A stretch of DNA of 61,722 nucleotides, filler included, from Dugesia japonica (Eukaryota), in assembly GCA_001938525.1 (NCBI GenBank). It is 5 parts of 5 records of this genome, joined end to end, with 100 filler letters (N's around TTAATTAATTAA, not from the genome) between each part and the next. Parts side by side here need not be neighbours in the genome. Positions count along the whole stretch, not along the records: positions 43,924 to 61,722 come from MQRL01630841.1; 4 more parts are not named here. The stretch is one strand, 5' to 3'. Each line of letters begins with the position of its first letter. Position 1 is the first letter of the stretch. Below the pieces are notes generated by a model that was not told the DNA's origin, made no database searches, and saw only the letters and a list, made by a program, of their open reading frames with translations. Position numbers and translations under genes: made by a program. Shown one piece after another: positions 10,325-61,722 of the stretch.

Positions 10325-10424
10325 NNNNNNNNNNNNNNNNNNNNNNNNNNNNNNNNNNNNNNNNNNNNTTAATTAATTAANNNNNNNNNNNNNNNNNNNN
10401 NNNNNNNNNNNNNNNNNNNNNNNN
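10325..10424. other. Artificial scaffold-concatenation linker
   Basis: N44-TTAATTAATTAA-N44 (stops in all six frames), identical at four positions. Confidence 0.97.
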
Positions 10425-11444: not shown

Positions 11445-11498
11445 TTTTTTATATTTAACTGGAAAACAATTTTCCTCGTAATTACGACTTCTTTCGAC

Positions 11499-12313: not shown

Positions 12314-12529
12314 TTTCTTCCTGATTTATGATGATCCCGTTAGTTTTGCAAGATGATTGATTATTTCCTCCTACTGTAACAAAAATTGTTGGTTCAATAA
12401 CCCCTTTCGGCGGTTCTTCAGAATTTATGCTCAACATGTACAATCTTTTCTCTCACCTATCCGTGGTTTCTTTTGTACATATTTTTAGCTTTCTGTTTAC
12501 CCAACGCACTTCTTCTCCTTCTTTCATGT

Positions 12530-13265
12530 TATTTCTACTGTTACGACATCCTTTTTTAGGACAGTTTAGTACTTGATGGCCAGTTTTTCGGCAGTAATAA
12601 TATTGTAACGTTGGGTTCTTACATTCTTCCTTTAGATGTCCCTTTCTTCCATTTTTTCCCCATTTTTTCTTTATCTAACGACAGTCATTTTCTTGATGTC
12701 CTTTTTGCCGACATTTATTACATTGTCTTGGTAGTACAACTAGTTGTCGCGTTGCTGGTTCATATTCTCGATGCATTTTGATGGCTTCTTCTAAAGTTTA
12801 GGGTTTTTATTCTTTATGAATGGTTGTATTTGTTTATCCCAAATCCCTTTATATAGGGATTGATACATGCACTATCTTTTTCGGGAGACCAATGTTCCGT
12901 CGGAAGGAGTTGTCTAAACCTGATGGCATAAAGGGTCGAGTTTTCTCCTGCTTGTTGTTTACAGTATAATATTTCTTTCAATGCTTCTTGGAATTCTTTT
13001 GGAATTTTGAAATTTTTCCTTAGTAATTGTTCTATCTCATTCCATGATTTGAACGATTCTCCTGTAGCCCGAATGTGCTGTCTATATAGCATCTTTGCGA
13101 TTCCTTCTAGATGAAGTGGTATCATAAGAGTCTTATCTTCCTCTTCCCATTTGAATGCTTTTGATAGCTTAAAAGGAATTCGTTTATTTCCTCCGAATTT
13201 CCTCTGAATGCCTCGCCGTGATAGCGCTTTACTGGTTTTCTTCTTATATAATGTTCGTTGTTCAT
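12530..13265 (-). pseudogene. Gag module 1: retrotransposon capsid plus three CCHC knuckles (stops and frameshifts)
   Basis: IPLHLEGIAKMLY...SWNEIEQLLRKNF...CKQQAGENSTLYAIRF; CNKCRQKGHQENDC, (x)GRKGHLKEEC, YYCRKTGHQVLNC. Confidence 0.82.
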
Positions 13266-15249
13266 AATTGTTTTCTAAGTTACAAATGATTATAAACTAA
13301 TTACTTGGATAATGCTAAGAATGCTACAACGATTTCCGACTGGATTGTGCTTGCTCCATTGAAGACTTTGAATCTAAACACATTTTAATTTACCCACACT
13401 GCCCAATTTGATTTTACCCTTAGTGTTTATTTTATACCCCCTTATCGTAAGGTCTAGCTAAAAGCTTATATTTTTAATGGTACTTGTTGAAATCACGTCT
13501 GCTTACTCTCCATCTCCGGTTTGTTTTAAATTCGACGTCCTCGTCGAACTCTTTATTAGTTAACTCGGATAGGGCTGTTCATTATCACAGTACTCCTAGG
13601 TTACGTGTATTTCCTATTGGCATCTCCCACTAAAAGGTAAATTCTAATTATTTGTTAATATAACCAGTTTCCCTTATTGCTTGAGTTAACATTTTAGCGT
13701 TTTATTCGCTTATTTTTTTTTGTCCAACCCCAGACTTCCAATTATTTCAGTCATTATCTTTTTGACATCGTTAACATATTTATTTAATAGTTGAGTCATA
13801 GTCCCATTATGTAATTACTATATCATGGTCGTGTTAAATTAAAATTCCTCTAGATAAAATCCAATAAATAACTGAGTCTTGATTGTTTTCCATTAAAATC
13901 TCTTTATTAATTACCATCGTATTTCACCAGGGCCCTCCTTTTAATATTTAAGTCATAATTTGATTAAAATCCATTTCTTTAGAATCGGTTTATTATTTAA
14001 AGTTAATCCTCCTTACTATCATACTCATCAAAGTTCTTTTAATAACTATTTCAATTCTAGCAAACTTCCGAATTTATCTAAAGTGGATTACTATTTACAC
14101 TGTAATCATAAATTAATCATGTTAATGGCTATAATCATGTAAAATCTTTTCAAGGTTTGGGTTATCATCATCTTTGTTTCATCTATCGATCTTATTTTAA
14201 TCATATTTTCCCTAATAACCATTATAATTTATTTAATCGTAATCACTTATGTAAAATCTGTTTAATATTCGTTTTCACATTACATCCAGTTAAAGTATCG
14301 TAATTAACAAAATCCGTCAATATCTAAATCAACATTCAATTCACTATTATATCTTTCTCGCCAAAGTCTCTTTAATCATAATTATGCTCCCTTAAATTGT
14401 GTTGTCTTGTCTGTTCATTTCAACTAGGTTTCTTTTTAATCTTCCTTTATTTTTCATTTTAATTTCCTTAATTAAGTCTTCCTTTATTCTTTCTTTTAAT
14501 TTCCTTAATTAAGTCTTCCTCTATTTCGAAATTACCTATGAAAAATCCTTTTAAACATTTGTATCATAATTTTAGTATGTCATGNNNNNNNNNNNNNNNN
14601 NNNNNNNNNNNNNNNNNNNNNNNNNNNNNNNNNNCTTCCTCTATTTCGAAATTACCTATGAAAAATCCTTTTAAACATTTGTATCATAATTTTAGTATGT
14701 CATGAGTTGTGATCATTATATATATACCTAATCTTTTAATAACAAGGATGCACCAATGAACCATTTCTTTCGAAATCTTTACTAATTTGGCTTTTGCCCT
14801 GCTCTACCGTAAGCGCAATTTAGATAGTTATTACCTTTATGACGTAGTCAATATACCAGCAGTCTCAATCGGGACGGGTCGACGTTTCTTGATCAGATCT
14901 CGACCTATCTGTCCGGCACGTGATTTGTTCAGTGGACGTTCAGATTATCTTTGCAGATCATGAGTAGTCGAGCTACCTGATGTTTCATACAGGTGATCAT
15001 CCATTCCCTGTCGCTCCCTCTTTTTTGTAAGAATCATAAATACTTGGTTGGCTCTTTGTTGCGGACAACAAAGCTGATCGTAACTTTGAAGTCTGGTTGA
15101 TCAGACCAATTTCACAACCTCCAATTCAATATGTATGATTACTGGGATCCCTTATCGCAGAAGGACTTATTACGCTACCAGTGTTCAACATAATAGAGTA
15201 CCCTTTCTAAGTGCAGGCAAACTTTTTATCGTGGCATGCCTAACTGCTC

Positions 15250-18422: not shown

Positions 18423-18983
18423 ATGGCAACAGAAAAGAAAAAAGACGAAGAAGTAGGATATAATTACACAGCACAAGATCAGATATGGTAATATATAACA
18501 GTTTTAGTAATATAATAAAGATATTAATGATAATAATAATATTAACAACAATAATAATAATAATAAATCAATTTATTTTAGGAAAGATCATTGCACTCAA
18601 GAAATGAAAAAAGCCGAAATTTGGGAGCATAATTGGAGTTTTTTGAAGCAGCCTTATAAAGAGGTACTAAACTTTGTATTTTTTATCTATGTATCTATAA
18701 ACATAAATTTTATTAGATTATCAAAGATGATATGGATAATTTGGTGGACAAAAACCGACCTAAAGCAGAATTACCTATGCATATGCGGGTTCAACCAGCG
18801 ACCCCGAAGAGTAAATACATTTCAGTCAAACCGTCACATACATCATATCCGAAAACTACAAGTGGAGAAGTTGGATGGCGATCTGCTCATAAAGATTTAC
18901 AATTGGAAACGTTTGGAAAATCGAGATTTGCTAAGGGTAGTATTTTGAAACAATTAAATTGGCCAGCTGAAGCTATTGGATAA
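18423..18983 (+). CDS. CIMIP1: Ciliary microtubule inner protein 1 (C20orf85/LLC1 family), 137 aa, 3 exons: 18423-18487, 18582-18663, 18717-18983
   Basis: Spliced product MATEKK...AQDQIWKDHCTQEMKKAEIWEHNWSFL...ELPMHMRVQPATPKSKYI...PKTTSGEVGWRS...KGSILKQLNWP aligns by eye with C20orf85 motifs QDEIWK, NWGFL, PQTTQGFIGWRS, LCWP; GT-AG introns; AATAAA downstream. Confidence 0.92.
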
Positions 18984-22730: not shown

Positions 22731-25073
22731 CACCCATACCTCGCTATACGGGCGCTCTTTATACGGCATTTCGCTATAACGGCCCTCTTAAATTAAGGTA
22801 CGTTTTCGATTTACGTCCTAAAATCTTTCGCTATAATGGCAAAAAAAACTTTTTTTCGATGTCGATATATCTACATGTTGCCAATCTTGCGCAAGCACAA
22901 TCTCGATGCACACTCTTTTTTATTTCCTCTTGTTTACGAGCGTTATTCAGTGTGTGCTCATAAAGCGGCTGCTTTAAACTTGTCTGTGAGTGTTTTATGT
23001 ACATATTTATTACTGATTGTTACACATTAACACATTTTTGGTACGTAAGTACATATGTTTGTATGTACAGATTAAAAATTTTTAAAATGTATTTTTTTAT
23101 TAAACTTATTTTATAATTTCATTATTTTTTAAATAAAATGCCACCGAAACGATTATCGACTTCAGAGACTGATAAAAAGAGATGTCGAAAATCAGTCACG
23201 CTAGGAACTAAACTAGAAGTATTACGTCGTATAGAAGCTGGAGAGAAAATTATAGAAATTTGCAAGACAATGGGACTTGCGAAATCTACCATTCAAACTA
23301 TTCGTGATAAAAAAAGAAGACAGTAAAACATATGTGCAATCTGCTGCACCTTTAAATGTCTCGAGATTAACACGCCAAAGAAACTGGATTATGGAAAAAA
23401 TGGAAAAACTATTGATTATATGGATTGAGGACAATAACAAACGGAGAATGCCAATGAGTCATATGACTATCCAGCATTAAGTATTTTCGAAAATTTGAAG
23501 AATGGAGATACCGATGAATCTGCTGAAGATGTCATATTCCAAGCAAGCCGAGGATGGCTTGAAAAATTGAAAAATAGAATATTTTGCATAATTTGAAAAT
23601 GAAAGGTGAAGAAGCTAGCGCCGATGAGGCCGCATCTAAGGAATATCCAAACATTTTAAAGGGACTTATTGAAATAGGTGGTTATAAACCTGAACAAGTG
23701 TTTAATTTAGAAAAACAGGGCTTTATTGGAAGCGAATGCCTGATCGCAGGTACATTTCAAAAACCGAAAAATCTGCCCCTGGTTATAAAGAACGATTAAC
23801 TTTGATACTTGGTGCAAATGCGGCGGGTGATTTTACGCTTAAACCACTTTTAATATATTTGTCCAAAAATACAAGGCCTCTTAAAGGACTAAATAAAAAT
23901 CAATTACCCGTCATATGGAGATCCAACAAGAAAGCTTGGATGACTAAAGCTACTTTTGAGGATTGGTTCAAAAATCACTTTTGTACAGAAGTGAAAAAAT
24001 ATTTGCGAGACAATAACTTAGGCAACAAGGTTTTGCTAATTTTGAATAATGCACCAGGGCATCCTACTAATTTATCCAAACTATCTGAAGATGTCATGAT
24101 TAAGTACCTTCCGAAAAATACATCAGCTCTAATTTAACCAATGGATCAGGGTGTATATTACCTATTAAGGCATATTACCTACGCCGAACTTTCCGACAAC
24201 TTATAAGGGAAATCGATGATAAATCTTCAATTAAAACATTTTGAAAAAACTATAACATCAAAGATGCTGTTGACAGCATCAGTGAATCATGGAAGGAATT
24301 AAAATTAACAACAATGGACCATGTTTGGAAAGAAATATGGCCAGAATGCGTAAAATGTACTGATGCAGATGTTAATTTCCTTCCTGAAATTAAGCAAAAC
24401 ATTTTGAATCTAGCACATGATCTCGGCTTTGAAGGTTTGAACGAACGTGATGTGCTTGATTTACTTGAAGCTGATAGGGAACCCTTTTCATATGAGGAAC
24501 TCATTCAGTTGCAAGCAGAACCGACATTTGACAAAGAGACAGAGCTACTTGTATCCAAACAGCTAACATCAAAAAATTTGTCAAAAGCTTTTTACTATTT
24601 CAAACAAGGAATAAACATCCTCCTTGAAAACGATCCTGACGTCGAATGTAGCGTTAAAGTTTCTAGAGGAATTAAATCAGCCGTTAGCTGTTATAAATCA
24701 CTGAAGAAATAAGAAGGCAAGTCAAACAACGTTGGACAATTTTTTTAAGTCAGTCCCATCCTTACCAGCGAAGAATGATGACGACAGTGATCTACAGGTT
24801 ACTATTTCTTCATCGTCTTCAGATTAAAGCCATTTAAAAAAGAATTATGTCTATTATTATTTTATGTACAAATGTATGTACTAGTTATCTATGTATTTTT
24901 GATTTAAATGAAATAAAAAGATAAAATGCATTTTGAATGATAAACCATGTTACATATTTAACAAATTTGGAACCGATCCCATCGAATTTGTGTAAATTTG
25001 TATTAGAATAATTGATTCCTTATACGGTTTTTGGTCGTGGAACGTATCTAGGCCGTAAAGCGAGGTATGGGTG
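22731..25073 (+). mobile_element. Full-length pogo/Tigger DNA transposon
   Basis: 21-bp TIRs CACCCATACCTCGCTATACGG / CCGTAAAGCGAGGTATGGGTG (1 mismatch), TA TSD on both sides. Confidence 0.95.
23138..24827 (+). pseudogene. Tigger/CENP-B-like transposase, frameshifted
   Basis: [23 protein letters not shown]; FQASRGW; KERLTLILGANAAGDFTLKPLLIY; WRSNKKAWMT; LILNNAPGHP (catalytic D replaced by N); LI*PMDQG; several stops and frameshifts. Confidence 0.93.
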
Positions 25074-25372: not shown

Positions 25373-25472
25373 NNNNNNNNNNNNNNNNNNNNNNNNNNNN
25401 NNNNNNNNNNNNNNNNTTAATTAATTAANNNNNNNNNNNNNNNNNNNNNNNNNNNNNNNNNNNNNNNNNNNN
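25373..25472. other. Artificial scaffold-concatenation linker
   Basis: N44-TTAATTAATTAA-N44. Confidence 0.97.
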
Positions 25473-34931: not shown

Positions 34932-35031
34932 NNNNNNNNNNNNNNNNNNNNNNNNNNNNNNNNNNNNNNNNNNNNTTAATTAATTAANNNNNNNNNNNNN
35001 NNNNNNNNNNNNNNNNNNNNNNNNNNNNNNN
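34932..35031. other. Artificial scaffold-concatenation linker
   Basis: N44-TTAATTAATTAA-N44. Confidence 0.97.
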
Positions 35032-40371: not shown

Positions 40372-41458
40372 TTAGGTAGGTGCATAAATTTGTGATGTTA
40401 TTTCAAGACATAAAACATTTTTATTATACAAAGTTTATCAGTTAAAAATTTTACTTCGTGTGTAGTACTTCTTCTCACCTTTAGACAAGCTTTTCCCATT
40501 CCATACTTGAGTTTGAAGCGAAGCATTCATGTAGCTAATATTTTATATCTATGTCCCCTTTTTCAGGAAATTCTCTAAAGAAAATGCAGAAAGTTTCAGA
40601 AGTGATAAAGCAAAATCGGGAGCGTAGAGTGGATGTAGGAGAATCTCTCAATGAAGATTTAGAATATCCGTTTTTTGTTCAGTTAGTAGGGTGCGGCCTA
40701 GTGATGCGTGCAAGACAATGATTTGATGTTTTAGACGCGGTCGTTTGAGTTATATTGCTTCTTTCAGGAGTGCAAACTGTTGACAGAATATTTCAGAATT
40801 GATTGTAATGTTTTGCGGAAGCAGATCGTTATAGATAACATCATGCACATCCCACCAGATACACAACACAGTCATCCACGATGAAGATCTGAATTTTTTG
40901 AAGTGTTGCTTGCTTGTCAGAGATACGCCATTATTTCCTTTGTTTTAAATTAGCACACATGCATCATGATTCACCACGGGTGATTACACGAAACGATTGA
41001 TGTTGCAGTTCAGCAATACGTGGACGGATAAGGAAATAATCGCAAATATTACCTTGTTAAAATTTGCTCTTTTAGGACAAAACGTGTGGCACTCCCAGTT
41101 TCTGCACTATGACCATGAACTTCATATTTTGGACAATTGTTGAGGGACCGTATTTCATTGTTCTAATCAAGTTTCACGTAATTTGATAAGGATTTACATG
41201 GATTAATTCTTTAAGCTAGTCGTCATTCAAGTTGGAAGAACGCCTAGTGTAAGAATTATAACATAGATCAAAGTTGCCCTGCTTAAAGTGTGCATAACAC
41301 TTTTGCATCGTCTTTTGAACAAGATAGTTTTTACCATACACAGTGAAAATATTTTTGGCGGCTTCAATTTCTGTGCAACCGCGGTTGAAATCATAGAGAA
41401 AGAGATGCTGGCAAAGTACTGTTTTTTTTTCATTATGGCACTCAGTCAGATTTGTCAT
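40372..41458 (-). mobile_element. Mariner (Hsmar/SETMAR-like) transposon relic
   Basis: N-terminal HTH HLFLYDFNRGCTEIEAAKNIFTVYG...FKQGNFDL; VLCIWWDVHDVIYNDLLPQNITINSEIFCQQF; LLHPLYAPDFA; TIR-like TTAGGTAGGTGCATAA. Confidence 0.87.
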
Positions 41459-41708: not shown

Positions 41709-42140
<432 letters not shown>

Positions 42141-43147
42141 TCTAACAAAGGATTTTTAAATAATAATATTTTAAATTGGATTTTTAGAATCTTATGCAAG
42201 TTTATAAATCAAATTTGACTTCTTAATTAGAAAGCTGTATGAAAGAAAATATGAAATGAATAAAATATTCCGATTTTTAAAAAAATGACTTATAATAATG
42301 TTTTTTTCCTTTTGACTTTTCATTTATTCTTATTATTTGTTTACTCCATGTTTAAACTTTCCATAAAAATTAAACATAACAATTAAAAACCTTTTATGTA
42401 AATATACTTCAAAAATCTACAAAACTCAAAAATTCATCAAATTGTTGTTTGTCTTTTATTGACTTCTTGGAGTTTTTCTAAATTTGATTAAAATTCTGGC
42501 AGATTATGTTAATCGTTTATCAAGAACCTATCTTTACCAAACTCATTAGGTTTATTAATATGCAACTTGACTTCAAAAAATGTTATTGTTGGCTCCATAA
42601 TAATTTTTTGGATTGTATTTTTCTTTTCAAAGCAATCCACCGCGACAGTCTCTTCTTCTTCCTAACGCTTATCAAAAAGTCGACTATTAATGATTTTTAG
42701 AGCTCATTTTCATTTTTAAAAATTCTTCAAAAACAACATCTTTCCCATCAATTCCGATAGTTCAGCACTTGTTGTTTCGGACTTGCCAAGTTTCAATGAT
42801 TGGAAAATTGTTTTTATAGCAACTAAGAACTAAGATTTTGATGAAGATGTGAAGATTTCATTTCTCTTTTATTTTTTTCTGATTTGTTTCTTCATTGAAT
42901 TTTCTACTGGAGCAATAGTTATATGTTTAATCCATTCTATCGTTTGTTGCTTTGATTGGTTTTATACAAACTAAAAGATTTTAGTTTAAAGAAATATTCT
43001 GAGAAATATCATTTTTAAAATGACATTGGAGTGTTTTGATTTTAGAATTCTTTTTGAAATCATAAGAAAAAGCAATTTTTTTTCTATTTAAAATTTATCG
43101 TGTTCTTTTTTGATTGAAACTATTTTATCTAAACTATTTATATTTAA

Positions 43148-43823: not shown

Positions 43824-43923
43824 NNNNNNNNNNNNNNNNNNNNNNNNNNNNNNNNNNNNNNNNNNNNTTAATTAATTAANNNNNNNNNNNNNNNNNNNNN
43901 NNNNNNNNNNNNNNNNNNNNNNN
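43824..43923. other. Artificial scaffold-concatenation linker
   Basis: N44-TTAATTAATTAA-N44. Confidence 0.97.
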
Positions 43924-46900
43924 TTTCTATTGCATTGAGTATTTTTTAACTCTAAACCTTTGAGTAAATATTAACTTTATTGCATTGAGTAACTTAGTAC
44001 TATATACCTTTGAGTAAATAATAACTATATAGCATTGGTACCTTATATTTATATACCATTGAGTAAATTATAAAATTATCGCATTAAGTAACTTAAAACT
44101 ATATAGCATTGAGTAACGTATAACTATATATCAGTACGTAAACAATAACTTTATAGCACTGAGTAACTTATAACTATATAGCATTGAGGAAATAATTCTT
44201 ATGTAGCATAAAGTAGGTTATAAATATATACTATTGACTTAATAATAATTGTATAGAATTAAGTACCTTATAACTATATTACATTGAGTAAATAACTATA
44301 TAGCATTGAGTAACGTATAATTATATAGCATTGAGTAAATAATAACAAACAAGCATTGAGTAACTTATAGCTATATAGCATTGAGTAACCAATAACTGTA
44401 TAGCATTGAGTAACTTATAACTATATACCATTGAGTAAATAATAACAATATAGATTGAGTTACTTATAACTATATACTTTTAAGAAAAAATAACTATATT
44501 GCGTTGAGTAATTTATAACTATAAAACATTGAGTAAATAATACCTATTTAGCATTGATGAACTTATACCTATATACCTTTAAGAAATTATAACTATATAG
44601 CATTGAATAACTTATAACTATAATCATTGAGTAAATAATAACTATATAGCACTGAGTAACTTATAACTATTTATCATTGAGAAAAAAACAACTATATACC
44701 ATTGCGTAACTTATAGCTATATACCATTCAGTATAAAATAACTATATATAACATAAAGAACGTTATAACTTTAAACCATAGAATAAATAATAAATATAAA
44801 GAATTAAGTAACTTATAACTATATAACACTGAGTAAATAACTATATAGCATTGAGAAACTTTTTATTGTAAATCAATGAGTATATAATAACTATATAGCA
44901 TTGAGTAACTTATAACTATATTTACGATTAAGTAAATAATAACTCTATAGAACCGAGTAACTAATTACTATGAAGAATTGAGTTAATAATAATTGTATAT
45001 AGCATAAAGTACGTTATAACTATAAACCATTGAGTATATAATAATTATATAAAATTAAGTAACTTATAACTATATTACATTGAGTAAATAACTATATAGC
45101 ACTGAGTAACTTATAATTATATAGCATTGAGTAAATAATAACTAATTGGCATTAAGTAACTTTTAACTATATAGCAATGAGTTACTTATAACTATATAGC
45201 ATTGAATAACTTATAACTATATACCATTGAGTAAATAATAACTATATAGCATTGAGTAACTTAGAACTATATACATAAGAGTAAATAACAACTATATAGC
45301 ATTGAGTAACTAATAACTATATGTCATTAAGTAACTTATAACTATAAAACATTGAGTAATTTATAACTATATAGCATTGAGTAACTTATAATTATATGCC
45401 ATTAAGTAAATAATAACTATTAAGCACCGAGTAAGTTACTCAACGCTCTATAGTTATTATTAACTCAATGGTATATAGTTATAAGTTACTCAAATCTAAA
45501 TATTAATTATTTACTCAATGGTTAATAGTTATACGTTACTTAATGCGATATCGTTATTATTTACTTAATGGTATATAGTAAGACGTTACTCTATGCTATA
45601 AAGTTATTATTTACTCAATGGTATACAGTTATAAGTTACTCAATGCTTTAAAGTTATTATTTACTCAAATGTATATAGTTATAAGTTACTTAATGCTATA
45701 TAGTTATTATTTATTCAATGGTAAATATTTATAAGTTACTTAATGCGATATATTTATTATTTACTCAATGGTATATAGTTATATGTTACTCAATGATATA
45801 TAGTTATTATTTACTCAATGGCATGTAGTTATAATTTACCTAATGCTTTATAGTTATTCTTCACTCAATGGCATTAAGTTATAAGTTACTTATTGCTTTT
45901 TAGTTATTATTTACTCAATGGTATATAGTTATATACTTATATAGTTAAATAACTATATAAGTATAAGTTACTCAATGCTTTATATTTATTATTTACTCAA
46001 TGGTTTATAGTTATATACTTATATAGTTATACTAGTATATAGTTATAAGTTACTCAATGCTTATCAGTTATTTTTTACTTAATGCTATATAGTTATTACT
46101 TACTCAATGCTATATAGTTATAATTTACTTAATGCTTTATAGTTATAAGGATCTTAAATACTATATAGTTATTATTTACTCAATGGTATATAGTTATAAG
46201 TTACTCAATGATTAACAATTATTATTTACTCAATGCTATATAGTTATTATTTACTTAATCCTATATACTTATAAGTTAAGCAATGCTATATTGTTATAAC
46301 TTACTCAATGCTTTACAGTTATTATTTACTCAATGCTATATAGTTATACGTTTCTCAAGGTTATATTTTTATTATTTACTCAATAGTATATATCTATACG
46401 TTACTCAATGCTATATCGTTGTTATTTACTCAATGCTATATAGTTATACTTTACTCAATGATCTTTAGTTATTATTTACTCAATGCTATATAATTATAAT
46501 TTATTCATTGCTATATACTTATAAGATACTTTATGCTATATAATTATTATTTACTCAATGGTATATATATATAAGTTAATCAATGCTATATAGTTTTGAT
46601 TTACTTAATGCTATATAGTTATAATTTACTCAACGCTATAAAGTTATTATTTACTCAATGGTATATAGTTATAAGTTACTCAATTCTTTATAGTTATTAT
46701 TTGCTCAAAAGTATATAGTTATTAGTTACTCAATGCTATATAGTTATTATTTACTCAATGGTATATAGTTATAAACTAGTCAATGCTATATAATTATTAT
46801 TTTCCCAATTGTATATAGTTATAAGTTAGTCAATGCTATATAGTTATTATTTACTCAATGGTATATAGATATAAGTTACTTAATGCCATATAGTTATTAT

Positions 46901-49900
46901 TCACTCAATAATATATAGTTCTAAGTTACTCAAGGCTTAAGAGTTATCATTTACTCAATATTATATAGTTCTATACTTCTATAGTTATATAAGTATATAG
47001 ATAAAAGATACTCAATGATATATAGTTATTATTACTTAATGGTTTAAAGTTATAAGCGTCTAAAGTTTTTATAGTTTTTATTAACTCAATGGTAAAAAGT
47101 TATTATTTACGCAATGCTATACGTTATTATAAACTCAATGATCTATTGTTATACGTTACTCAATGCTATTAATCTATTAATTAATAAATGCTTTATACTT
47201 ATTATTTACTCCATGGTTTATAATTATATACTAATATAGTTATACTAGTATATAGTTATAAGTTACTTAATGTATATATAGTTATAAGTTACTCAATGCT
47301 TTATAGTTATTACTTACTCACTGCTATTTAGTTATTATTTACTCAATGCTATATAGTTATAAGTTAATCAATGCTTTAAAGTTATAATTTACTCAATGCT
47401 ATAAATTTTTAGGTTACTCAACTCTATATAGTTATTAAGTACTCAACAGTATATAGTTATAAGTTACTCAATGCTATATCGTTATAAGTTACTCAATATA
47501 ATAAAGATATTTTTTACTCAATGCTATACAGTTATTATTTACTCAATGATATATAGTTATACGTTTCTCAATGCTTATAAGTTATTATTTACTTAATGCT
47601 ATATAATTATTATTTACTCATTGCTATACAGTTATAGGGTACTTTATGCTATATAGTTATTATTTACTAAAGAGGTATATAGTTATACGTTCCTTAATGC
47701 TATATAGTCATACGTTACTCAATGCTATATAGTTATCATTTGCTCAATGGTATATAGTTATAAGTTACTCAATGCTATTTAGTCATTATGTACTCAACGG
47801 AATATAGTTTTAAGTTACTCAACGCTATATAGTTATTATGTATTCAATAGTTTATAGTTATTATTTACTCAATGCTATATAGTTATAATTTACTCAATGC
47901 TATATAGTTATAAGTTACTCAATGCTATATAGTTTTTATTTACTCAATGGTTTATAGTTATAATTTACTCAATCCTATATAGTTATAAGTTACTTGATGC
48001 TATATAGTTATAAGTTACTCAATGGTAAATAGTTATTATATACTTAATAGTATATGGTTAAAGTTACTTAACGCTATATAATTAATTTTTTCTCAATAGT
48101 GTATAGTTATAAGGTACTAAATGCTTTAAAGTTATTATTGTCTCAATGGTATAAAGATTTTAGTTACTCAATGCTATATATTTATTGTTTTCTCATTAAT
48201 ATACAGTTATAAGGTTTTTTTTATATAGTTATTAGTTACTCAATGGTATATAATTATTATTTACTCAATGGTGTATAGTTATAACCTACTCAATGCTATT
48301 AGGTCATTATTTACTCATTGGTATATAGTTTAAAGTTACTCAATGCTATATAATTATCATTTGCGCCATAGTATAGATTATACGTTACTCAATGCTATTT
48401 AGTCAATATTTACTCAATGGTATATAGTTATATACTTATATAGTTATATAAGTATATAGTAAAAGGTTACTCAAAGCTATATAGCGATTATTTACTTAAT
48501 GCTATATAGTTATAATTTACTTAATGCTATATAGTTATAAGTTACGTTATGCTTTTTAGTTATAAGTAACTTAATCCTATATAGTTATAAGTTTCTAAAT
48601 GCTATAAACCTTTATTTTACTCAATGGTATGTAGCTATACGTTACTCAATGCTTTATAATTATTATTCACTCAATGATATTTAGTTATAAGTGACTTAAT
48701 GCTATATAGTTATTATTTACTCAATAGTATATAGTTGTAATATACTTAATTCGATATAGTTATTACTTACTCAATGGTATATAGTTCTATACTTATATAG
48801 TTATATAAGTATATAGTAAAAGGTTACTCAAAGCTATATAGCGATTATTTACTTAATGCTANNNNNNNNNNNNNNNNNNNNNNNNNNNNNNNNNNNNNNN
48901 NNNNNNNNNNNNNNNNNNNNNNNNNNNNNNNNNNNNNNNNNNNNNNNNNNNNNNNNNNNNNNNNNNNNNNNNNNNNNNNNNNNNNNNNNNNNNNNNNNNN
49001 NNNTATAATTATTATTCACCCAATGATATTTAGTTATAAAAGACTTAATGCTATATAGTTATTATTTACTCAATGGTATATAGTTGTAATATACTTAATT
49101 CGATATAGTTATTACTTACTCAATGGTATATAGTTATAATTTACTCAATGCTATATAGTTATTATTCACTCAATGGTATATAGTTATAAGTTACTCAATG
49201 CTTTATAGTTATCATTTGCCCAATGGTATAAAGTTATAAGTTACTCAATGCTATTAAGTCATTATTTACTAAATGGTATATATTTATAAGTTACTTAATG
49301 CTATATAGTTATTATTTACTCAATGTTATATAGTTATACGTTAATCAATGATATATATTTATTATTCACTTAATGGTATTTAGTTATAAGTTAATCAATG
49401 CTATATAGTTATTATTTACTTAATGCTATATAGTTATAATTTACTTATTGCTATATAGTTATAAGTTACTTTATGCTTTTAAGTTATAAGTTACTTAATC
49501 CTATATAGTTATACGTTTCTTAATGCTATAAACATTTATTATACTCAATGGTATGTAGTTATAAGTTACTCAATGCTTTATAATTATTATTCACGCAATG
49601 GTATATAGTTATAAGTTACTCAATGCTATACAAATATTATTTATTCAATGGTCTATCATTATATGTTAATCAGTGCTATATAGTTATTATTTACTTAATG
49701 GTCTATTATTTTAGGTTACTCAATGCTATATTGTTATTATCTTTTCAATAATATATAGTTCTAAGTGTCTTATAAGCTATATAGCTTTTATTTACTCAAT
49801 TGTTTATAGTTATAAGTTACTCAATCCTCTATCGTTATAAGGTAGTCAATGCTATATAGTTATCATTTACTCAATGTTATATAGTTATACGTTAATCAAT

Positions 49901-52900
49901 GATATATTTATTATTCACTGAATGGTTTTTAGTTATAAGTTAATCAATGCTATATAGTTAATGTTTACTCAATGTTATATAGTTATAAGTTACTCAATGC
50001 TTTATGGTTATTATTTACTTAATGCTATATAGTTATATACTTATATAGTTATATAAGTATAAAGTTATAAGTTATTCATTGCTATATAGTTATTATTTAC
50101 TCAATGCTCCATAGTTATAATTTGCTTAATGCTATATAGTTATAAGTAACTCAATTCTATATAGTTATAAGTTACCTAATGCTTTTAAGTTATTTTTACT
50201 CAATGGCATATATATAAGTGTCCTAATGCTATATAGTTTTCATTTACCTAATGTTTTGTAGTTATACGTTACTCAATGCTTTAAAGTTATTATTAACTCA
50301 ATGGTATATAGGTTTAGGTTCTCAATGCTATATAGCTATAAGTTACTCAATGCTTTGTAGTAATAAGTTACTCAATCCTATAAAGTTATAAGTTACTAAT
50401 TGCTCTATAGTTTTCATTTACTCAATGGTATACAGTTATTAGTTACTCAATGCTATATAATTATTATTAACTCAATGCTATAAAGTTAAAAGATAGTCAA
50501 CGCTTTATAATTATTATATACTAAATGGTTTATAGTTTTAAGTTATTTAAAGCTTTATAATAATTATGAACTCAATGGTATATAGTTATATACTTATATA
50601 ATTATATAACTATATAGTTATCCGTTACTCAATGCTATATAGTTATAATTTACAAAATGCTATATAGTTATAAGTTACTCAATGCCATTTAGTAATTATT
50701 TTCTCAATGGCGTATAGTTATAAGTTTCCTAATGCTATAAAAATTTATTTACCTAATGTTTTCTAGTTATACGTTACTCAATGCTATATAGTTATTATTC
50801 ACTTAATGGTATATGGTTATAGGTTTTCAATGCTATATAGTTATAAGATCCTCAATCTAATATAGTTATTATTTACTCATTGGTATATAGTTAAACGTTC
50901 CTCAATGCTGTGTAGTCATAAGTTACTCAACGCTATATAATTATACGTTACTCAATGCTATATAATTATAACTTACTCAATTCTATATAATGATTATTTT
51001 CTCAATGGTATATAGTTATAAGGTACTAATTGCAATATAGTTATTGTTAACTCAATAGTTTACAGTTATTAGTTACTTAAGGCTATATAGTTATAATTTT
51101 TTCAATAGTATACAGTTATAACTTACTCAATGCTTTATAGTTATTACTTACTCAATAGTATATAGTTATAAGTTTCTCAATGCTATATAGTTATCATTTG
51201 CTCAATGCTAGAAAGTTATTATTTACTCAATGCTATATAGTAATGAGTAACTCAACGGTCTATAGTTATGTGTACCTAATCGTATATAGTTTTAAGTTTC
51301 TCAACGCTAAACAATTATTCTTTACTAAATGGTATATAGTTATAAGTCTCCAATGCTTTATAGTTATAACTTACTCAATTCTACATAGTTATTATTTACT
51401 TAATGGTGATTAGTGATAATTTACTCAATGCTATATAGTTATAAGTTACTCAATGGTTTAAACTTATAAGTTACTCAATGCTATACAGTTATTATATACT
51501 CAATAATATATAGTTATACGTTAATCAATGCTATTTAGTTATTATTAACTCAATGCTATGTAATTATTATTTACTCAATGATATATACTTAAAAGATACA
51601 TAATGCTATATAATTATTATTTACTCACTATTATTAAATTAAACATTACTCAATGCTATATAGTAATTATGTACTCAATAGTATATAGTTATAAGTTACC
51701 TAATACTTTAAAGTTATCATTTACTCAATGCTATATAGTTAATCTTTACTCAAGTGTATATAATTCTAAGTTTCTCAATGCTATATAGATACCATTTACA
51801 CAATGGTATATAGTTATACGTTACTCAATGCTATATAGTTATTACGTTTTCAATGGTATATAGTTATAACTTACTTAATGCTATATAATTATTATTTACT
51901 CAATGGTATATAGTTATTAATAACTGAATGCTATATCGTTGTTATTTAATCAATGCAATAAAGTAATAATTTACTCAATGCTATATGGTTAATATTTACT
52001 CAATGGTATATAGTTATAATTTACTTAATGGTATATAGTTATTATTTACCTAATGGTATATAGTTATAAGTTACTCAATGCTATATAGTTATCATTTGCT
52101 CAATGCTATATGTTTATTATTTCCTCAATGCTGTATAGTTATAAGTAACTCAACGGTCTATAGTTATTATGTACTCAATCGTATATAGTTTAAAGTTACT
52201 CAACGCTAAATACTTATTATTTACTAAATTGTATATAGTTATAAGTTCCTCAATGATATATAGTTATACGTTATTCAATGCTATATAGTTAGAATTCACT
52301 CAATAGTATATAGTTATAAGTTATTCAATTCTTTATAGTTATTATTTACTCAATGGTTAATAGTTATGTACTTATATAGTTATATAAGTATATAGTTTTA
52401 ATTTACTTAATGCTATATAGCTATTATTTACTTAATGCTATATAGTCATAATTTACTTAATGCTATATAGTTAGAAGATAATCAATGCTTTATAGTTATA
52501 AGTTACTCAATCCTTTATAAGTTTAAGTTACTCAATGCTATATAGTTATACGTTACTTAATCGTATATGGTTATAAGTGTCTTATTTCATAATAGTTTTT
52601 ATTTACTCAATGTTATAAAGGTATAAGTTACTCAATGCTATATAGTTATTATTTACTCAATGCTTTATCGTTAATTATTACGCAATGGTATATAGTTATA
52701 CGTTACTCAATGCTATATAAATATAAGTGAGTCAGTCCTTTATAATTATTTTTTTTCAATAGTATATATTAATAAGTTACTCAATGCTATATAGTTATTA
52801 TTTACTCAATGGTATGTAGTTATTAGTTCCTCAAAGCTATATAGTTATAATTTCTTCAATGGTATATAGTTTGTAGTTACTTAATGCTATATTCTTATTA

Positions 52901-55900
52901 TTTACTCAATGGAATATAGTTATATACTTATATAGTTATATAAGTATATAGTTATAAGTTAATCAATGCTATATAGTTATTATTTTCTCAATGCTATATA
53001 GTATTTATTTACTTATGGCATTATTGTTTGAAGTAACTTATTGAATTAAAGTTTAAAAATACTTAATCCTTTATAGTTATCGGATACTCAATGGTATATA
53101 GTTATAAGTGACTCAATGCTATGTAGTTATTATTTACTCAATTGTATATAGTTATAAGTTACACAATGCTTTATAGTTATTTGTTACTCAATGGTATATA
53201 ATTATACGTTACACAATTCTATATATTTATTATTTACTCAAAAGTATATAGTTATAAGTTTCGTAATGCTATATAGTTATTATTTGCTCAATGCTATATA
53301 GTTATATAAGTATATAGTTATATGTTACCCAATTGTATATAGTTTTATAAGTAAATAGTTATAAGTTACTTTATGCTATATAGTTATTATTTAATCAATG
53401 GTATATAGTTATATGTTACTCAATTCTTTAAAGTTTGAAAATGCTTAATCCTAAATAGTTAATAGTTACTCAATGGTATATAGTTATAAGTTACTCAATG
53501 CTATATAGTTATTATTTACTCAATGTTATATAGTTATAAGTTATTCAATGATATATAGTTATTATTTACTCAATTGTATATAGTTATATACTTATATAGT
53601 TATATAAGTATATAGTTATAATTTACTCAATGTTTTATCGTTAATTTTTACGCAATGGTATATAGTTATACGTTACTCAATGCTATATAAATATAAGTTA
53701 GTCAATTCTTTATAATTATTGTTTTCTCAATAGTATATATTAATAAGTTACTCAATGCTATATAGTTATTATTTACTCAATGGTATATACTTATAAGTTA
53801 CTCAATGCTTTATAGTTATTATTTATTCAATGGTATATAGTTAGTAGTTATTTAATGCTATATTCTTATTATTTACTCAATGCAATATAGTTATATACTT
53901 ATATAGTTATATAAGTATATATTTATACTTTAATCAATGCTATATAGTTATTATTTTCTCAATGCTTAATAGTATGTATTTACTTATGGCTATATTGGTT
54001 TAAGTAACTTATTGATTTAAAGTTTAAAAATACTTAATCCTTTATAGTTATAAGTTACTCAATGGTATATAGTTATAAGTGACTCAATGCTATATAGTTA
54101 TTATTTACTCATTGGTATATAGTTATAAGGTACTCAATGTTTTATAGTTATTATTTACTCATTAGTATATATTTAGATACTTATATAGTTATATAAGTAT
54201 ATAGTTATAAGTTACTTTATGCTATATAGTTATTATTTACTCAATCCTATATAGTAAAAATTTAATAAATGCTATATAGTTATAAGTTACTAAATAATAT
54301 ATATTTATAATTTCACCAATGCTATATCGTTAATCTTTACTCAAAGGTATATAGTTATAAGTTAATCAATGCTATATAGTTATTATTCACTCAATGTTAT
54401 TTAGTTATAAGTTACTTAATGCTTTATAGTCATTATTTTCTTAATGCTATATAGTTATATACTTATATAGTTATATAAGTATATAGTTATAAGTTAATCA
54501 ATGCTATATAGCTATTATTTACTCAATGCTATAAAGTAAGAATACACTTAATACTATATAATTTTAAGTACTCAATGCTATATAGTTATAAGTTTCTCAA
54601 TGCTTTATAGTTATAAGTTACTCAAAGGTAAGTTATAAGTTTCTCAATGCTTTATAATTATACTTTACTCAATCCTTTATAGTTATTATTTACTGAATGG
54701 TATATAGTCATAAGTTACTAAAAGCTATATAGTTATTATTTACTCAATAGTATATAGTGATATTAGTTATAAGTTACTCAATGGTATATAAATATATATT
54801 ACTCAATGCTATTAAGTTATTTTATACACAATGATATATAGTTATACATTACTCAATGCCATTTAGTTATGATTGTCCTAATGCTGTATAATTATAATTT
54901 ATCAATGGTTTTTAATTAAACGTTACACAATGCTATTTAGTTATTATTTACTCAATGGTATATAGTTATAAGTTACTAAATGCTTTATACTTATAAGTTT
55001 CTCAATGCTATCTAGTTATTATTTTTTCAATATTATATAGTAATAAGTTACTCAATATTTAATAGTTATTATTTTCTCAACGGTATATAGTTATATGGTA
55101 CTCAATGCTATATAATTATAAGTTTCATAATTGGTTTATAGTTATAATTTACTCAATGATATACAGTTATTACATACTCAATGATATATAGTTATATGTT
55201 CCTCAATGCTATAAAGTTATTAATTAGTCAATCATATTTAGTTAGTATTTACTCAATGGTATATAGTAATAAGTTACTCAATATTATGTAGTTATTATTT
55301 TTTCAATGGTATATAGTAATAAGTCACTCAATGCTATATAGGCATTATTGGCTCAATGGTATATAGATATAAGGTACTCAATGCTATATAATTATTAGTT
55401 ACTCAATCGTATAAAGTTATAAGTTACTTAATGACATATAGTTATAAGTTACTCAATGTTATGTAGTTATTATTTACTCAATGGTATATAGTTATAAGTT
55501 ACTCAATGCTTTATAGTTATTTGTTACTCAATGGTGTATAATTATAAGTTACTCAATTCTTTATATTTATTATTTACTCAAAAGTATATAGTTATAAGTT
55601 TCTTAATGCTATATAGTTATTATTTACTCAATGCTTTATAGTTATATAAGTATATAGTTATAAGTTACTTTATGCTATATAGTTATTATTTATTCAATGG
55701 TATATAGTTATTTGTTACTCAATTCTTTAAAGTTTGAAAATGCTTAATCCTAAATAGTTATAAGTTACTCAATGGTATATAGTTATAAGTTACTCAATGC
55801 TATATAGTTATTATTTACTCAATGGTATATAGTTATAAGTTACTCAATGCTGTATAGTTATTATTTACTCATTGGTATCCAGTTATATACTTATATAGTT

Positions 55901-58900
55901 ATATAAGTATATAGTTATAAGTTACTCAATGCTATATAGTTATTATTTACTCAATGATATTTAGTTATAAGTGTCCCTATTCCTAATAGTTTTTATTTAC
56001 TTAATGGTATGTAGTTATAAGTTACTCAATGTTATAAAGTTATTATTTACTCAATGGTATATAGTTATAAGTTACTCAATGTTATATAATTATTATTTAC
56101 TCAATGGTATATAGTTATAAGTTACTCAGTGCTATATAGTTATTATTTTCTCAAAGGTTTATAATTATAAATTACTCAATTCTTTTTATTTATTATTTAC
56201 TCAATGGTATATAGTTAAAAGTTTCTTTATTCTATATAGTTATGTTTTCCTCAATGCTATATAGTTATAAGTTACTCAATGCTATCTAATTATTATTTAC
56301 TCAATTTTATATAGTTATTATGTTCTCAATGCTATATTGTTATCATATACACAATTTTTTATAGTTATAAGTTACTCATGGCTATATAGTTATTATTTGC
56401 TCAATGTTATATAGTTATAAGTTACTCAATGCTATATAGTTATTATTTACTCAATGCTATATAGTTATAAGTTATTCAATGCTATATAGGTATTATTTAC
56501 TCAATTGTTTATAGTTATAAGTTACTAAATGCTGTATAATTATTATTTACTCAATGGTTTATAGATATAAATTTCTCAACGCTATATAATTATTATGTAC
56601 TCAATGCTTTATAGTTATAAGTTACTTAATTCTATATAGTTAATTTTTACTCAATGATATATAGTTTTAAGTTACTCAATGCTATATAGTTATCATTTGC
56701 TCAATGGTTTAAATTATAAGTTACTTAATGCTATACAGTTATTATGTTATCAATGGTATATAGTTATAAGTTACTCAATATTCTATATTTATTATTTACT
56801 CAATTCTATGTAGTTATACGTTACTCAACGCTATATAGTTATTATTTACTCAATGGTATATAGTTATAAGTTATTCAATTCTATATAGTTTGTATTTACT
56901 CAATGATTTATAGTTATAATTTAATAAATGCTATATTGTTATTATTTACTCAATTCTTTATTGTAATAGTTTACTCAATGCTATATAGTTTTGAGTTACG
57001 CAATGCTTTATAGTTATACATTACTCAATGTTTTATAGTTATAAGATACTCAATGGTATATAGTTATAAGTTACTTAATGCTATATAGTTAATTTGTACT
57101 CAATGGTAAATAGTTAAAAGTTACTCAATGCTATATATTTATTATTCAATCACTGGTATATAGTTTTAGGTTACTGAATGCTATATAGTTATTATTTACT
57201 CAATGGTATATTGTTATAAGTTACTTAATTCTATATAGTTAATTTGTACTCAATGGTTTATAGTTAAAAGTTACTCAATGCTATATAGTGATTACTCAAT
57301 CAATGGAATATAGTTATAGGTTACTGAATACTTTATAGTTATTATTTAATCAATTGTATATAGTTATATACTTATAAAGTTATATAAGTATGTAGTTATA
57401 ATATACTCAATTCTATATAGTTATTATTTACTCAATGCTGTAGAGTTATAATTTACTTATTGCTATATAGATATATGTTACTCAATGCTATATAGTTATA
57501 AGTTACTTAATGATATATTGTTTTAAGTTACTTAATTGTACATAGGTATATAAGTTTATAGTTATATGTTACTTTATGCTATATAGTTATTATTTAATCA
57601 ATGGTATATAGTTATATGTTACTCAATTCTTTAAAATTTGAAAATGCCTAATCCTAAATAGTTATAAGTTACTCAATGGTATATAGTTATAAGTTACTCA
57701 ATGCTATATAGTTATTATTTACTCAATGGTATATTGTTATAAGTTACTCAATGCTGTATAGTAATTATTTACTCATTGGTATATAGTTATTTATTTATAT
57801 AGTTATATAAGTATATAGTTATAAGTTACTCAATGCTATATAGTTATTATTTACTCAATGGTATATTGTTATAAGTTACTCAATGCTGTATAGTAATTAT
57901 TTACTCATTGGTATATAGTTATTTACTTATATAGTTATTTAAGTATATAGTTATAAGTTACTCAATGCTATATAGTTATTATTTACTCAATGGTATATAG
58001 TTATAAGTGTCCTTATTCCTAATAGTTTTTATTTACTTAATGGTATGTAGTTATAAGTTACTCAATGTTATAAAGTTATTATTTACTCAATGGTATATAG
58101 TTATAAGTTACTCAATGGTATATAGTTATTATTTACTCAATGGTATATAGTGATAAGTTACTCAGTGCTATATAGTTATTATTCCCTCAATGGTTTATAA
58201 TTATAAGTTACTCAATGCTATTTATTTATTATTTACTCAAAGTTATATAGTTATAAGTTACTTAATGCTATATAATTATTATTTACTCAATTTTATATAG
58301 TTATTATGTTCTCATTGCTATATAGTTATCATATTTACAATAGTTTATAGTTATAAGATACTCATGGCTATATAGCTATTATTTGCTCAATGTTATATAG
58401 TTATTATTTACTCAATTGTATATAGTTATAAGTTACTAAATGCTGTATAATTAATTTTTACTCAATGGTTTATAGATATAAATTACTCAACGCTATATAA
58501 TTATTATTTGCCCAATGCTTTATAGTTATAAGTTACTTAATTCTATATAGTTATTATTTACTCAATGGTATGTAGTTATAAGTTACTCAATTCTATATAG
58601 TTATCATTTGCTCAATGGTATATAGTTATAAGTTACTTAATGCTATATAGTTATTATTTTATCAATGCTATATAGTTATAAGTTACTCAACGCTTTATAG
58701 TTATTATTTACTCAATGGTATATAGTTATAAGTTATTCAATTCTATATAGTTGGTATTTACTCAATGCTATATAGTTATAATTTATTAAATGCTATATAG
58801 ATATTATTTACTCAATTCTTTATTGTAATAGTTTACTCAATGCTATATAGTTTTAAGTTACGCAATGCTTTATAGTTATAAGGTTATCAATGCTATTTAG

Positions 58901-59623
58901 TTATAAGATACTCAATGCTATATAGTCATTATTTACTCAATAGTATATAGTTATTAGTTACTTTATACTATATAGTTATTATTTACTCAATGGTATATTG
59001 TTATAAGTTTCTCAATGCTATATAGTTATTATTTACTCAATGGTATATAGTTATTAGTTATTTAATGCTATATAGTAATTTGTTCTTAATCGGTTATAGT
59101 TATAAGTTACTCAATGCTATATCGTTATCATTTTCTTAATTGTATATAGTTAGAAGTTACTCAATGCTCTATATTTATTATTTACTCAATACTTTATAGT
59201 TATAAGTATCTGAACGCTATATAGTTATTACTTGCGTAATGGTATATCGTTATAAGTTACTCAATGCTATATTGTTATTATTTACTCAAGTGTATATAGT
59301 TATTATTTACTCAATGCTATATAATTCATATTTACTCAATGCTATATAGTTATAAGTAACTCAACGCTATATAGTTATTATTTTCTCAATGGTATTTAGT
59401 TATAAGTTACTGAATGCTATATAGTTATTAGTTTCCCAATGGTATATAGTTATAAGACTCCTAATGCTATATAGTTATCATTTGCTCAATGGTATATAGT
59501 TATAAGTTACTCAGTACTATATAGTTATTATTTACTTAATGCTATATCTTATAAGTTACTCGATGCTATATAGTTATTGTTTACTCAATGGTTTATATTT
59601 ATATGTTACTCAATGCTATATAG
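43924..59623. repeat. Satellite array of 25-bp monomers, commonly as a 50-bp dimer CTATATAGTTATTATTTACTCAATG-GTATATAGTTATAAGTTACTCAATG; roughly 600 units; orientation flips at 45435
   Basis: Direct reading; 43924-45434 carries the reverse complement (CATTGAGTAA...AACTATATAG). Confidence 0.98.
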
Positions 59624-59672
59624 AAACACATAATAACAACACATAACAACAATAACAACAATGTTAACGAGA

Positions 59673-60010
59673 TTATTGGTATTTCAACCATGATAAGCAG
59701 TTTTGTTTACAATAAAATGTACATCGATTTTCGTATTGAATTCTATTGTAGACTACTGGCTTCATCAGTTTCGATAGTTGCGATACTAACTTCGCAAGAT
59801 AATTTAATCCTAATGGATCGAATACGAGTATTTGAGCTGGTTTATTGTAAACTGCAATCCAATGTTCTCCACCTAAGCTTGATGTTTGCGTCTTAACGAT
59901 TATGGCACTGTTCACCGGTAGAAACGGGATCTTTGCTAGTGGATAGACACCTAATTACTTTGAGGTGAGCAACTTTGATCCAATTTTTTCAATCTGAATA
60001 GAACTATTAT
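59673..60010 (-). pseudogene. Polinton/Maverick adenain-like cysteine maturation protease
   Basis: SIQIEKIG...K*LGVYPLAKIP...IIVKTQTSSLGGEHWIAVY...VFDPLG...RIQYEN...YCKQNCLSWL: H, D, Q, C in adenain order; one in-frame stop at ~59954-59956. Confidence 0.88.
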
Positions 60011-60083
60011 ATTTAATACATTAATCTTATAAAATACTTTCTTCATATTATTTCGATCATATTACACATGCACGAGATCTTGT

Positions 60084-61304
60084 TTACATAATTATACTTC
60101 TGGCTGCTGTAAGTTGGATTTCACTTTCAAAAACTCCATATTTTATAACATATCCGGACGCTGTCAACGGTTTTGAAAACTTGATATCTATTCTCAACTT
60201 ACCATTTTGCGGCAATTGGCTTTGATTTACATCGAAATCTGGAGCAAGTACAAATGTGAAGAACGGATATTTGTCTTTGAAGTCTGCAAGTGTTATTCCA
60301 CAATTCATATTCTTATCGAGATATCCCATATTTCGAACATTCCTTTGCATATATGTTGTACTATAATTATTGCCATCAAAGTCCTGAGTATATGTTTCTC
60401 GAAAATCTGTGTTTTTNNNNNNNNNNNNNNNNNNNNNNNNNNNNNNNNNNNNNNNNNNNNNNNNNNTCTTTGAAGTCTGCAAGTGTTATTCCCCAATTCA
60501 TATTCTTATCGAGATATCCCATATTTCTAACTATCGACTGTATATATGTTGTATTATAATTATTGCCATCAAAGTCCTGAGTACATGTTTCTCGAAAATC
60601 TGTGTTTTTTGATACCGATACTGAAACAGCATTGAAATATTGAAACGACGAACTTGAGCTTTTATAACTTCCAATGTACTGTTCTGAGCTTAAAAATGTA
60701 ACTAGAATAAATATTGGCAAACGGCTATAACCAAATATCTGCTCCTTATAAAATGATGAACTATCTTTACTAATTGCAAAAGCAACAATTTCCTTGGTTC
60801 TTATAGGATAAATGGCATTTTACTTATTTAGTCCAATTTGATGTCCTGCTAATACTGATGGTCCAACTCAAACACGTCTAACCATAAGTTTTGCATCAAG
60901 CAATGCATATTCAGGCTCCCCAGCGGCTGATTCCAAACATATTTTGGAAGATGCTCTTTTCATTTCAATTTTTACATTAACTCCCGGAATAAGATATTTN
61001 NNNNNNTCCATAAAGTCCAATTGTATTGATCCACATAAAGACAATGGTTTTCTAATATTCTTCTGTCTATCTGCATCAGCTCCATATCTCATAGCTGTAA
61101 GTCATATATTCTTACTATCACAGTTATAATTGATAATTGTTTCAATCAACGCTTTCTGTATATAAGTACCTTTTCCACCTTCGATTCTGTATGAATTAAA
61201 TGATATAATCAAATCTTTAAACAACGTGTAAAACATAAAGTTTGTGGGTATTACATCAGATTTATCTACCAAATCTTTACCATCTTTATCAGTTACTTTT
61301 ACTC
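60084..61304 (-). pseudogene. Polinton/Maverick double-jelly-roll major capsid protein (PY, F54H12.2-like), copy 1, disrupted
   Basis: VKVTDKDG...PTNFMFYTLFKD...TYIQKALIETIINY; LCGSIQLDFM..KYLIPGVNVKIEMKR; LLDAKLMVRRV; AIYPIR; GITLADFKDKYPFFTFVLAPD...GKLRIDIKFSKPL...YGVFESEIQL; stops and N gaps; directly upstream of the protease as in Mavericks. Confidence 0.88.
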
Positions 61305-61354
61305 NNNNNNNNNNNNNNNNNNNNNNNNNNNNNNNNNNNNNNNNNNNNNNNNNN

Positions 61355-61722
61355 CATTTTGCTTATTTAGTCCAATTTGATGTCCTACCAATACTGATGG
61401 TTCAACTCGAACACGTCTAACCATTAGTATTGCATCAAGCAATTCCTATTGAGGCTCTCCAGTGGCTGCTTCCAAACATATTTTGGAAGATGCTCTTTTC
61501 ATTTCAATTTTTACATTAACTCACGGAATAAGATATTTTGGCTGATCCATAAAGTCCAATTGTATTGATCCACATAGAGACTATGGTTTTCTGATATTCT
61601 TCTGTCTATCTGCATCAGCTCCATATCCCATAGCTGTAAGGCATATACTCTTACTATCGCCGTTATAATTGATAATTGTTTCAATCAGCGCTTTCTGTAC
61701 ATAAGTACCATTTCCACCTTCG
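61355..61722 (-). pseudogene. Polinton/Maverick major capsid protein, second divergent copy (partial, runs off the window)
   Basis: Paralogous to 60816-61182 with many substitutions; LDFMDQPKYLIPxVNVKIEMKR...LMVRRVRVEPSVLVGHQIGLNKQN; carries its own stop codons. Confidence 0.85.

Follow-up and report, generated by a model that had tools for sequence, protein, structure and literature searches.

A degraded copy of a Maverick-type element meets an older 25-bp satellite in the window, that is, the whole stretch of 61,722 nucleotides from the Dugesia japonica assembly GCA_001938525.1 that was analysed, and this junction is real but ordinary. The join exists, both of its sides break internally, and the element copy is decayed. 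Some other copies of the element and two relatives continue past the same region without satellite. Probably, a dead copy of a high-copy family of the Maverick/adintovirus type lost its downstream part via deletion or ectopic exchange with the older array. The features of the two sides are listed in Table 1.

Table 1. Features of the satellite array and of the adjoining element copy, with positions along the window.
Feature	Position	Strand	Remarks
Linker	43824..43923	.	44 N + 12 bases + 44 N; left edge of the array abuts it
25-bp satellite, inverted block, 60.6 monomers	43928..45434	-	TRF
25-bp A/B satellite, main block, 565 monomers	45436..59623	+	TRF
142-N gap within the array	48862..49003	.	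132-bp overlap, 97%, across the gap
Last monomer, 18/25 bases	59606..59623	+	Perfect unit match, then abrupt break
AAC/AAT-rich sequence past the protease stop, 49 bp	59624..59672	-	Probably of element origin
Short adenain-type protease pseudogene	59673..60020	-	Stop 59673-59675; in-frame stop 59955-59957
Major capsid, C-terminal piece	60084..60416	-	P0163 residues 297-406, 75%, no internal stop; stop 60084-60086
Second capsid piece	60467..61304	-	Residues 64-343, 71%, three in-frame stops, 7-N gap inside
Third capsid piece	61355..61722	-	Residues 104-227, 75%, three in-frame stops; leaves the window

Capsid and protease of the element copy

An earlier note on this DNA placed the capsid stop at 60084 and the protease stop at 59673-59675, with a gap-free run from there into the satellite. 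These coordinates are right, the capsid stop codon being 60084-60086. The calls of a capsid and an adenain-like protease also hold, on the predicted fold of P0163 and on matches to Peptidase_C5 and adenain, and the protease is a pseudogene. The capsid that the note saw upstream of the protease is borne out for 60084-60416, which is the only capsid piece connected to the satellite without a gap. Further capsid consists of two more pieces beyond N gaps. The overlap of the first and second pieces is 93% identical and that of the second and third 91%. The three pieces are different copies, or the scaffold was tiled from them.

Identity of the capsid pieces to a protein family of 406-409 aa, with 16 hits and P0163 as the reference, is 71-75%. 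The predicted model of P0163 (pLDDT 78.8) is a double jelly roll that matches the capsids of iridovirus, PBCV-1, mavirus and Sputnik with E values from 1e-15 to 1e-12. The first Atlas hit for the capsid carries PF21738, DJR-like, on 30% of its members, and no Pfam hit was obtained for this capsid lineage. Among Maverick features, the window thus holds a major capsid predicted to be a double jelly roll, and an adenain-like cysteine protease adjoins it. Viral contigs gave 26 pattern hits for capsid relatives and 5 for protease relatives, and none of either kind was confirmed.

The protease frame matches Pfam Peptidase_C5 with an E value of 7e-4, below the cut-off. It is 65% identical to the database protein P0002 over 121 columns. 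P0002 and P0003 both pass the Peptidase_C5 cut-off, and P0002 matches adenain 1avp (E 0.004). The in-frame stop at 59955-59957 falls within the homologous region, and the residue aligned with the glutamine that precedes the catalytic cysteine in adenain is changed. Therefore, the protease copy is dead. The closest relatives are very short proteins of 105-150 aa. Ten of the eleven close relatives shown end 6-11 residues past a motif, the eleventh lacking this region, and the window protease ends 3 residues past it. Since the closest relatives are short and end just past the same motif, 59673-59675 is taken as the natural end of the protease. A longer, frameshifted protease was ruled out by the same ten relatives.

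Element family and its relatives

The two genes likely belong to a Maverick/Polinton element of the adintovirus type, of which the capsid and the protease are the only parts in the window. A capsid followed by a protease on one strand is the order of vertebrate Mavericks, most copies of which are degraded and lack TIRs (PMC8097293, excerpt). Virion genes of adintoviruses are reported to be animal-restricted and often endogenised and degraded (PMC8502044, excerpt). The present copy resembles these elements in having a double-jelly-roll capsid, as predicted, and an adenain-like protease on one strand, and in being degraded. Its lineage differs from them in its capsid of 406-409 aa without a Pfam hit, in its very short protease and in the gene of roughly 150 aa that comes next in the relatives. 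The protein-primed PolB, rve integrase, packaging ATPase, minor capsid and termini of a Maverick are absent from the window, which ends inside the capsid. The lineage with a 406-aa capsid and a short protease is represented here solely by unnamed proteins of databases, and it appears very abundant in the host.

A scan of metagenome contigs turned 113 pattern hits into three loci, L001-L003, of 1.5-2.1 kb each. All three have the order capsid to protease. L001 and L002 are near-identical, and L001 ends within the protease. Both relatives that reach further, L002 and L003, carry a related gene that starts 29 and 30 bp past the protease stop; the capsid identity of these two relatives is only about 58%. 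This gene (L002 1475-1933; L003 1381-1460) encodes about 150 aa, is conserved and carries a DFQ...IKE motif. The L002 gene had no Pfam hit and one homologue. Its Atlas match was to eukaryotic hypothetical clusters (0.97), with Maelstrom (0.86) and 3'-5' exoribonuclease (0.80) as weaker leads. Eight copies of a 7-bp unit, unrelated to the 25-mer, are found at L002 1908-1961, past this gene.

The join and its support

The earlier note had set the AAC/AAT-rich spacer at 59626-59672. The spacer is there, and its start is corrected to 59624, which gives 49 bp between the protease stop and the array. It is probably element sequence, because contigs of run X2 have a loose end at 59623 and because of the gene spacing in L002 and L003. 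An ATG lies at 59631-59629, 42 bases past the protease stop, and its frame enters the satellite after three codons. Possibly, the next gene of the element begins at this ATG. There is no N between 60416 and 49004, and the element part that continues gap-free into the satellite is confined to 59624-60416.

Contigs of four public runs, X7 from organism B and X1, X20 and X2 from three studies of organism A, were aligned to 59400-60416 at 80% likeness. Record 6 of X1 (180 bp, depth 9.62) covers 59485-59664 with no difference, so that 139 satellite bases and 41 spacer bases stand on one contig. X1 possibly represents the source reads of the assembly itself and is hence not independent, and its contigs were assembled separately from the window. 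Among the pieces listed, a bridging contig was found only in X1 and none in X2 or X20. An assembly artefact that fused two repeats is very improbable as the origin of the join. The assembly is gappy, with 28 N runs in the window, different copies seem to have been tiled in the capsid region, and the bridging contig comes from what may be the source data. However, a contig assembled on its own crosses the join without a difference, and the join is confirmed as real.

Maverick ends would be TIRs that finish in (AGT)2 or (AG)3, with a 6-bp TSD, and the other end of the present element lies outside the window. Near the join there is no AGTAGT, AGAGAG or CTCTCT, which is expected of a truncated copy, and the one ACTACT falls within the protease. 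Two short X2 contigs, among the pieces listed, agree with the window as far as 59623 and continue with 22 letters that are not satellite. Since no Maverick end motif is present at the join and other copies and relatives continue, the join looks like a one-off break inside the element and not an insertion site.

The suggestion of the earlier note that the element targets this satellite found no support at a join of this kind. In full, it would mean that the element family prefers inserting into the satellite, or is tolerated only there, and that the copy was truncated later. This is compatible with the truncation of a dead copy, to which it adds targeting, and we consider it unlikely. The copy does adjoin the array, several capsid pieces of diverged copies lie side by side as in repeat-rich heterochromatin, and TEs are known to interrupt satellite arrays (PMC5411766, excerpt). 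However, this is one case only, and a join that has neither an element terminus nor a target-site duplication is uninformative on the insertion site. N gaps lie between the stacked capsid pieces, whose adjacency may be a product of scaffolding.

The third suggestion, that array expansion truncated the element, is retained for the truncation at the array, which is the best reading. Expansion as its cause gives way to deletion or exchange, which is the better fit. The breaks are internal on both sides, after 18 of the 25 bases of a perfect monomer and at an internal point of the element without an end motif.

Structure of the satellite array

The satellite of 15.7 kb in the earlier note corresponds to an assembled span of 15,696 bp. 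Within this span lie the 142-N gap and, at 45435, a flip of orientation, and on the left it starts at the 100-bp linker, so that the real array may have another length.

Main-block monomers are exactly 25 bp in 478 of the 565 cases, and 467 are distinct. They fall into two types, A and B, whose alternation is a tendency. Their mean distance from the unit is 11.2%, and pairs of monomers differ by 20% at lags 1-200 and by 18.6% at lag 400. The 20 monomers nearest the join are 9.5% from the unit, compared with 11.2% overall, and 83% of the 20-monomer windows are at least as diverged. Therefore, neither a decay gradient nor a degenerate cradle is found at the join. All 555 hits of monomer-like sequence in the whole window lie in the array.

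Mid-array, at 52.7-58.8 kb, stretches of about 0.97, 1.9-2.0 and 2.3 kb have been duplicated (identity 91-97.5%), and 4,385 of the 15,696 array bases belong to segments that have a counterpart of about 93-96% identity elsewhere in the array. Some growth of the array is as recent as the element, so the age contrast discussed below applies to the monomers and not to the length of the array. A wholly static array was rejected on account of the kb-scale duplications. No recent duplication was detected in the 700 bp beside the join, where the best in-array matches (0.835-0.875) are within the shuffled range (maximum 0.885-0.90). A recent local duplication of 132 bp was seen near 57673-58011. A variant pair of 57 bp (about 29+28 bases) occurs 18 times across 45911-57958 and gives an irregular higher-order structure.

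The mirror identity of the inverted and adjoining blocks is 80-82%, with controls at 75-86%, and no Maverick end motif is present at the inversion point. These results reject a palindromic or foldback Maverick derivative with the inversion at its centre, as its arms lack high mirror identity and the end motif is absent. By eye, the orientation flip (45425-45445) is clean, with both blocks in register, and falls at a 7-base near-palindrome of the unit. The break at 59623 coincides, also by eye, with the end of the 8-base palindrome of the unit. Template switching at such mini-palindromes is possible as the cause of both the flip and the break.

The satellite pattern had no match in viral contigs or in prokaryote genomes. 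Four 15-base monomer motifs returned no paper among main texts, and a supplementary catalogue could already list the 25-mer.

Relative age and abundance

Copies of the element differ from X7 contigs by 6.1% (22/361) and 2.9% (6/210), and the capsid pieces of the window differ by 7-9% among themselves. If rates are similar, the monomers, being 20% apart, would be older than the split of this element copy from its sisters. In that case, this copy would not have been the starting point of the array. The monomer divergence could also have been inherited from a master copy.

The summed contig depth at the protease end was 138,733 in X1, 25,959 in X20 and 15,533 in X2, and at 59591 in the satellite it was 8,489, 3,940 and 3,173, respectively, sums that give no copy number. 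They are taken to mean that the satellite and the element are both abundant and that the join, at the depth of its single contig, is rare among the contigs listed; a junction with many copies would be expected in short contigs, possibly beyond those listed.

The earlier note had also proposed that the satellite grew inside the element and was spread by it. In its strongest form, the 25-mer would belong to the element as a terminal or accessory array of a subfamily, would have been moved beside the protease by an internal deletion, and would have overgrown and spread with the element. We regard this as rather improbable. In X1, X20 and X2 alike, both the satellite and the element are abundant, the array owes part of its growth to recent duplications of 1-2.3 kb, a master copy could account for the monomer divergence, and TE-borne satellites are known for Helitrons (PMC8268682, excerpt). 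However, the element part of the window (59624-61722) and L001-L003, which cover the capsid, the protease and one downstream gene, contain no 25-mer: the best site there has 7-8 mismatches and shuffled sequences gave 6-8, so a monomer homologous to or embedded in the element was not found. Other arrays are only about 81-93% identical to the junction-side monomers among the longest pieces listed, and close to the join the alleles of the window are almost confined to it (at 59562, 54 of a depth of 52,579 in X1). X7 has the element at 94-97% and zero satellite depth, which weighs little at a depth of 3.7. Vertebrate Maverick TIRs measure 46-1,447 bp (PMC8097293, excerpt), compared with more than 14 kb here. 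The inversion point bears no end motif, and the far end of the array is masked by the linker. The check named in the note, namely whether the 25-mer follows other protease copies, speaks in part against the proposal, as the two X2 contigs, L002 and L003 continue satellite-free. Together with the absence of the 25-mer from the element and with an array that looks older than the copy, growth of the satellite inside the element is not upheld.

Discussion

The truncation of a dead element copy could have proceeded as follows. A copy of a high-copy Maverick/Polinton family would have landed in or near the older 25-bp array and would have decayed there. A deletion or illegitimate exchange would then have removed everything past the protease, namely the next gene, the remainder of the element and its terminal repeat. 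This would have fused the interior of the element with the interior of a monomer. Meanwhile, the middle of the array would have kept expanding through ordinary kb-scale unequal exchange. We infer the order of these events, the mechanism of repair and the single-copy status of the join.

The arrangement is like that of the Rsp and 260-bp loci of Drosophila, in which TE fragments stand at array edges, orientation flips occur and breakpoints lie inside repeats (PMC5411766, excerpt). In contrast, those loci involve retroelements and long monomers, whereas a Maverick piece and a 25-bp dimeric unit are involved here. As found, the join means little, since neither a degraded Maverick nor a TE fragment at the edge of a satellite is unusual.

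A satellite carried by the element, if true, would make a virus-like, self-synthesising element both the source and the carrier of a host satellite. By analogy with Helitrons in oysters and flies, a Maverick subfamily with a 25-bp repeat as cargo or in its ends might have seeded a major satellite family of multi-kilobase arrays, and we hold this to be quite doubtful. Central repeats of oyster Helitrons are TE-carried satellites with recurrent TE flanks, and one satellite with a Polinton match in Repbase is tabled in the same study (PMC8268682, excerpt). The Cast5 flanks of Tribolium are likewise TE-linked satellite arrays with a recurrent flank (PMC4675708, excerpt). However, the oyster and Tribolium cases, as these excerpts present them, rest on many arrays with a common flank, and here there is one join among the contigs listed, no proto-repeat in the element, and copies that continue array-free. 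A worked-out Maverick-borne satellite was not found in the literature searched, where the Repbase similarity of the one oyster satellite was the only lead.

Other observations

Run X7 of organism B carries the element at 94-97% identity and low depth, without satellite, over 59752-60316. Runs X6, X8-X12 and X14-X19, other runs of organisms B, C, D and E, and sediment metagenomes were at 12-17% of words, a share taken as no evidence either way. The element in organism B may reflect contamination, diet, a related host or horizontal transfer.

The window is AT-rich, with a GC content of mostly 20-33%. The same 100-bp linker (44 N, 12 bases, 44 N) stands at four places, 10325-10424, 25373-25472, 34932-35031 and 43824-43923, and the sequences on either side of each copy may not adjoin in the genome. 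A decayed LTR retrotransposon with Retrotrans_gag, zinc knuckles and an aspartyl protease lies at 10518-13296 on the minus strand, and a remnant of a DDE_1 (pogo/Tigger-type) transposase at 23706-24712 on the plus strand. An exon at 18511-18948 (plus strand) has a weak match to LLC1 (PF14945; E 1.8e-5, below the cut-off). Two further stretches on the minus strand, at about 40400-41450 and 41850-42150, look by eye like a mariner-like transposase remnant and exons of ribosomal protein S23, respectively.
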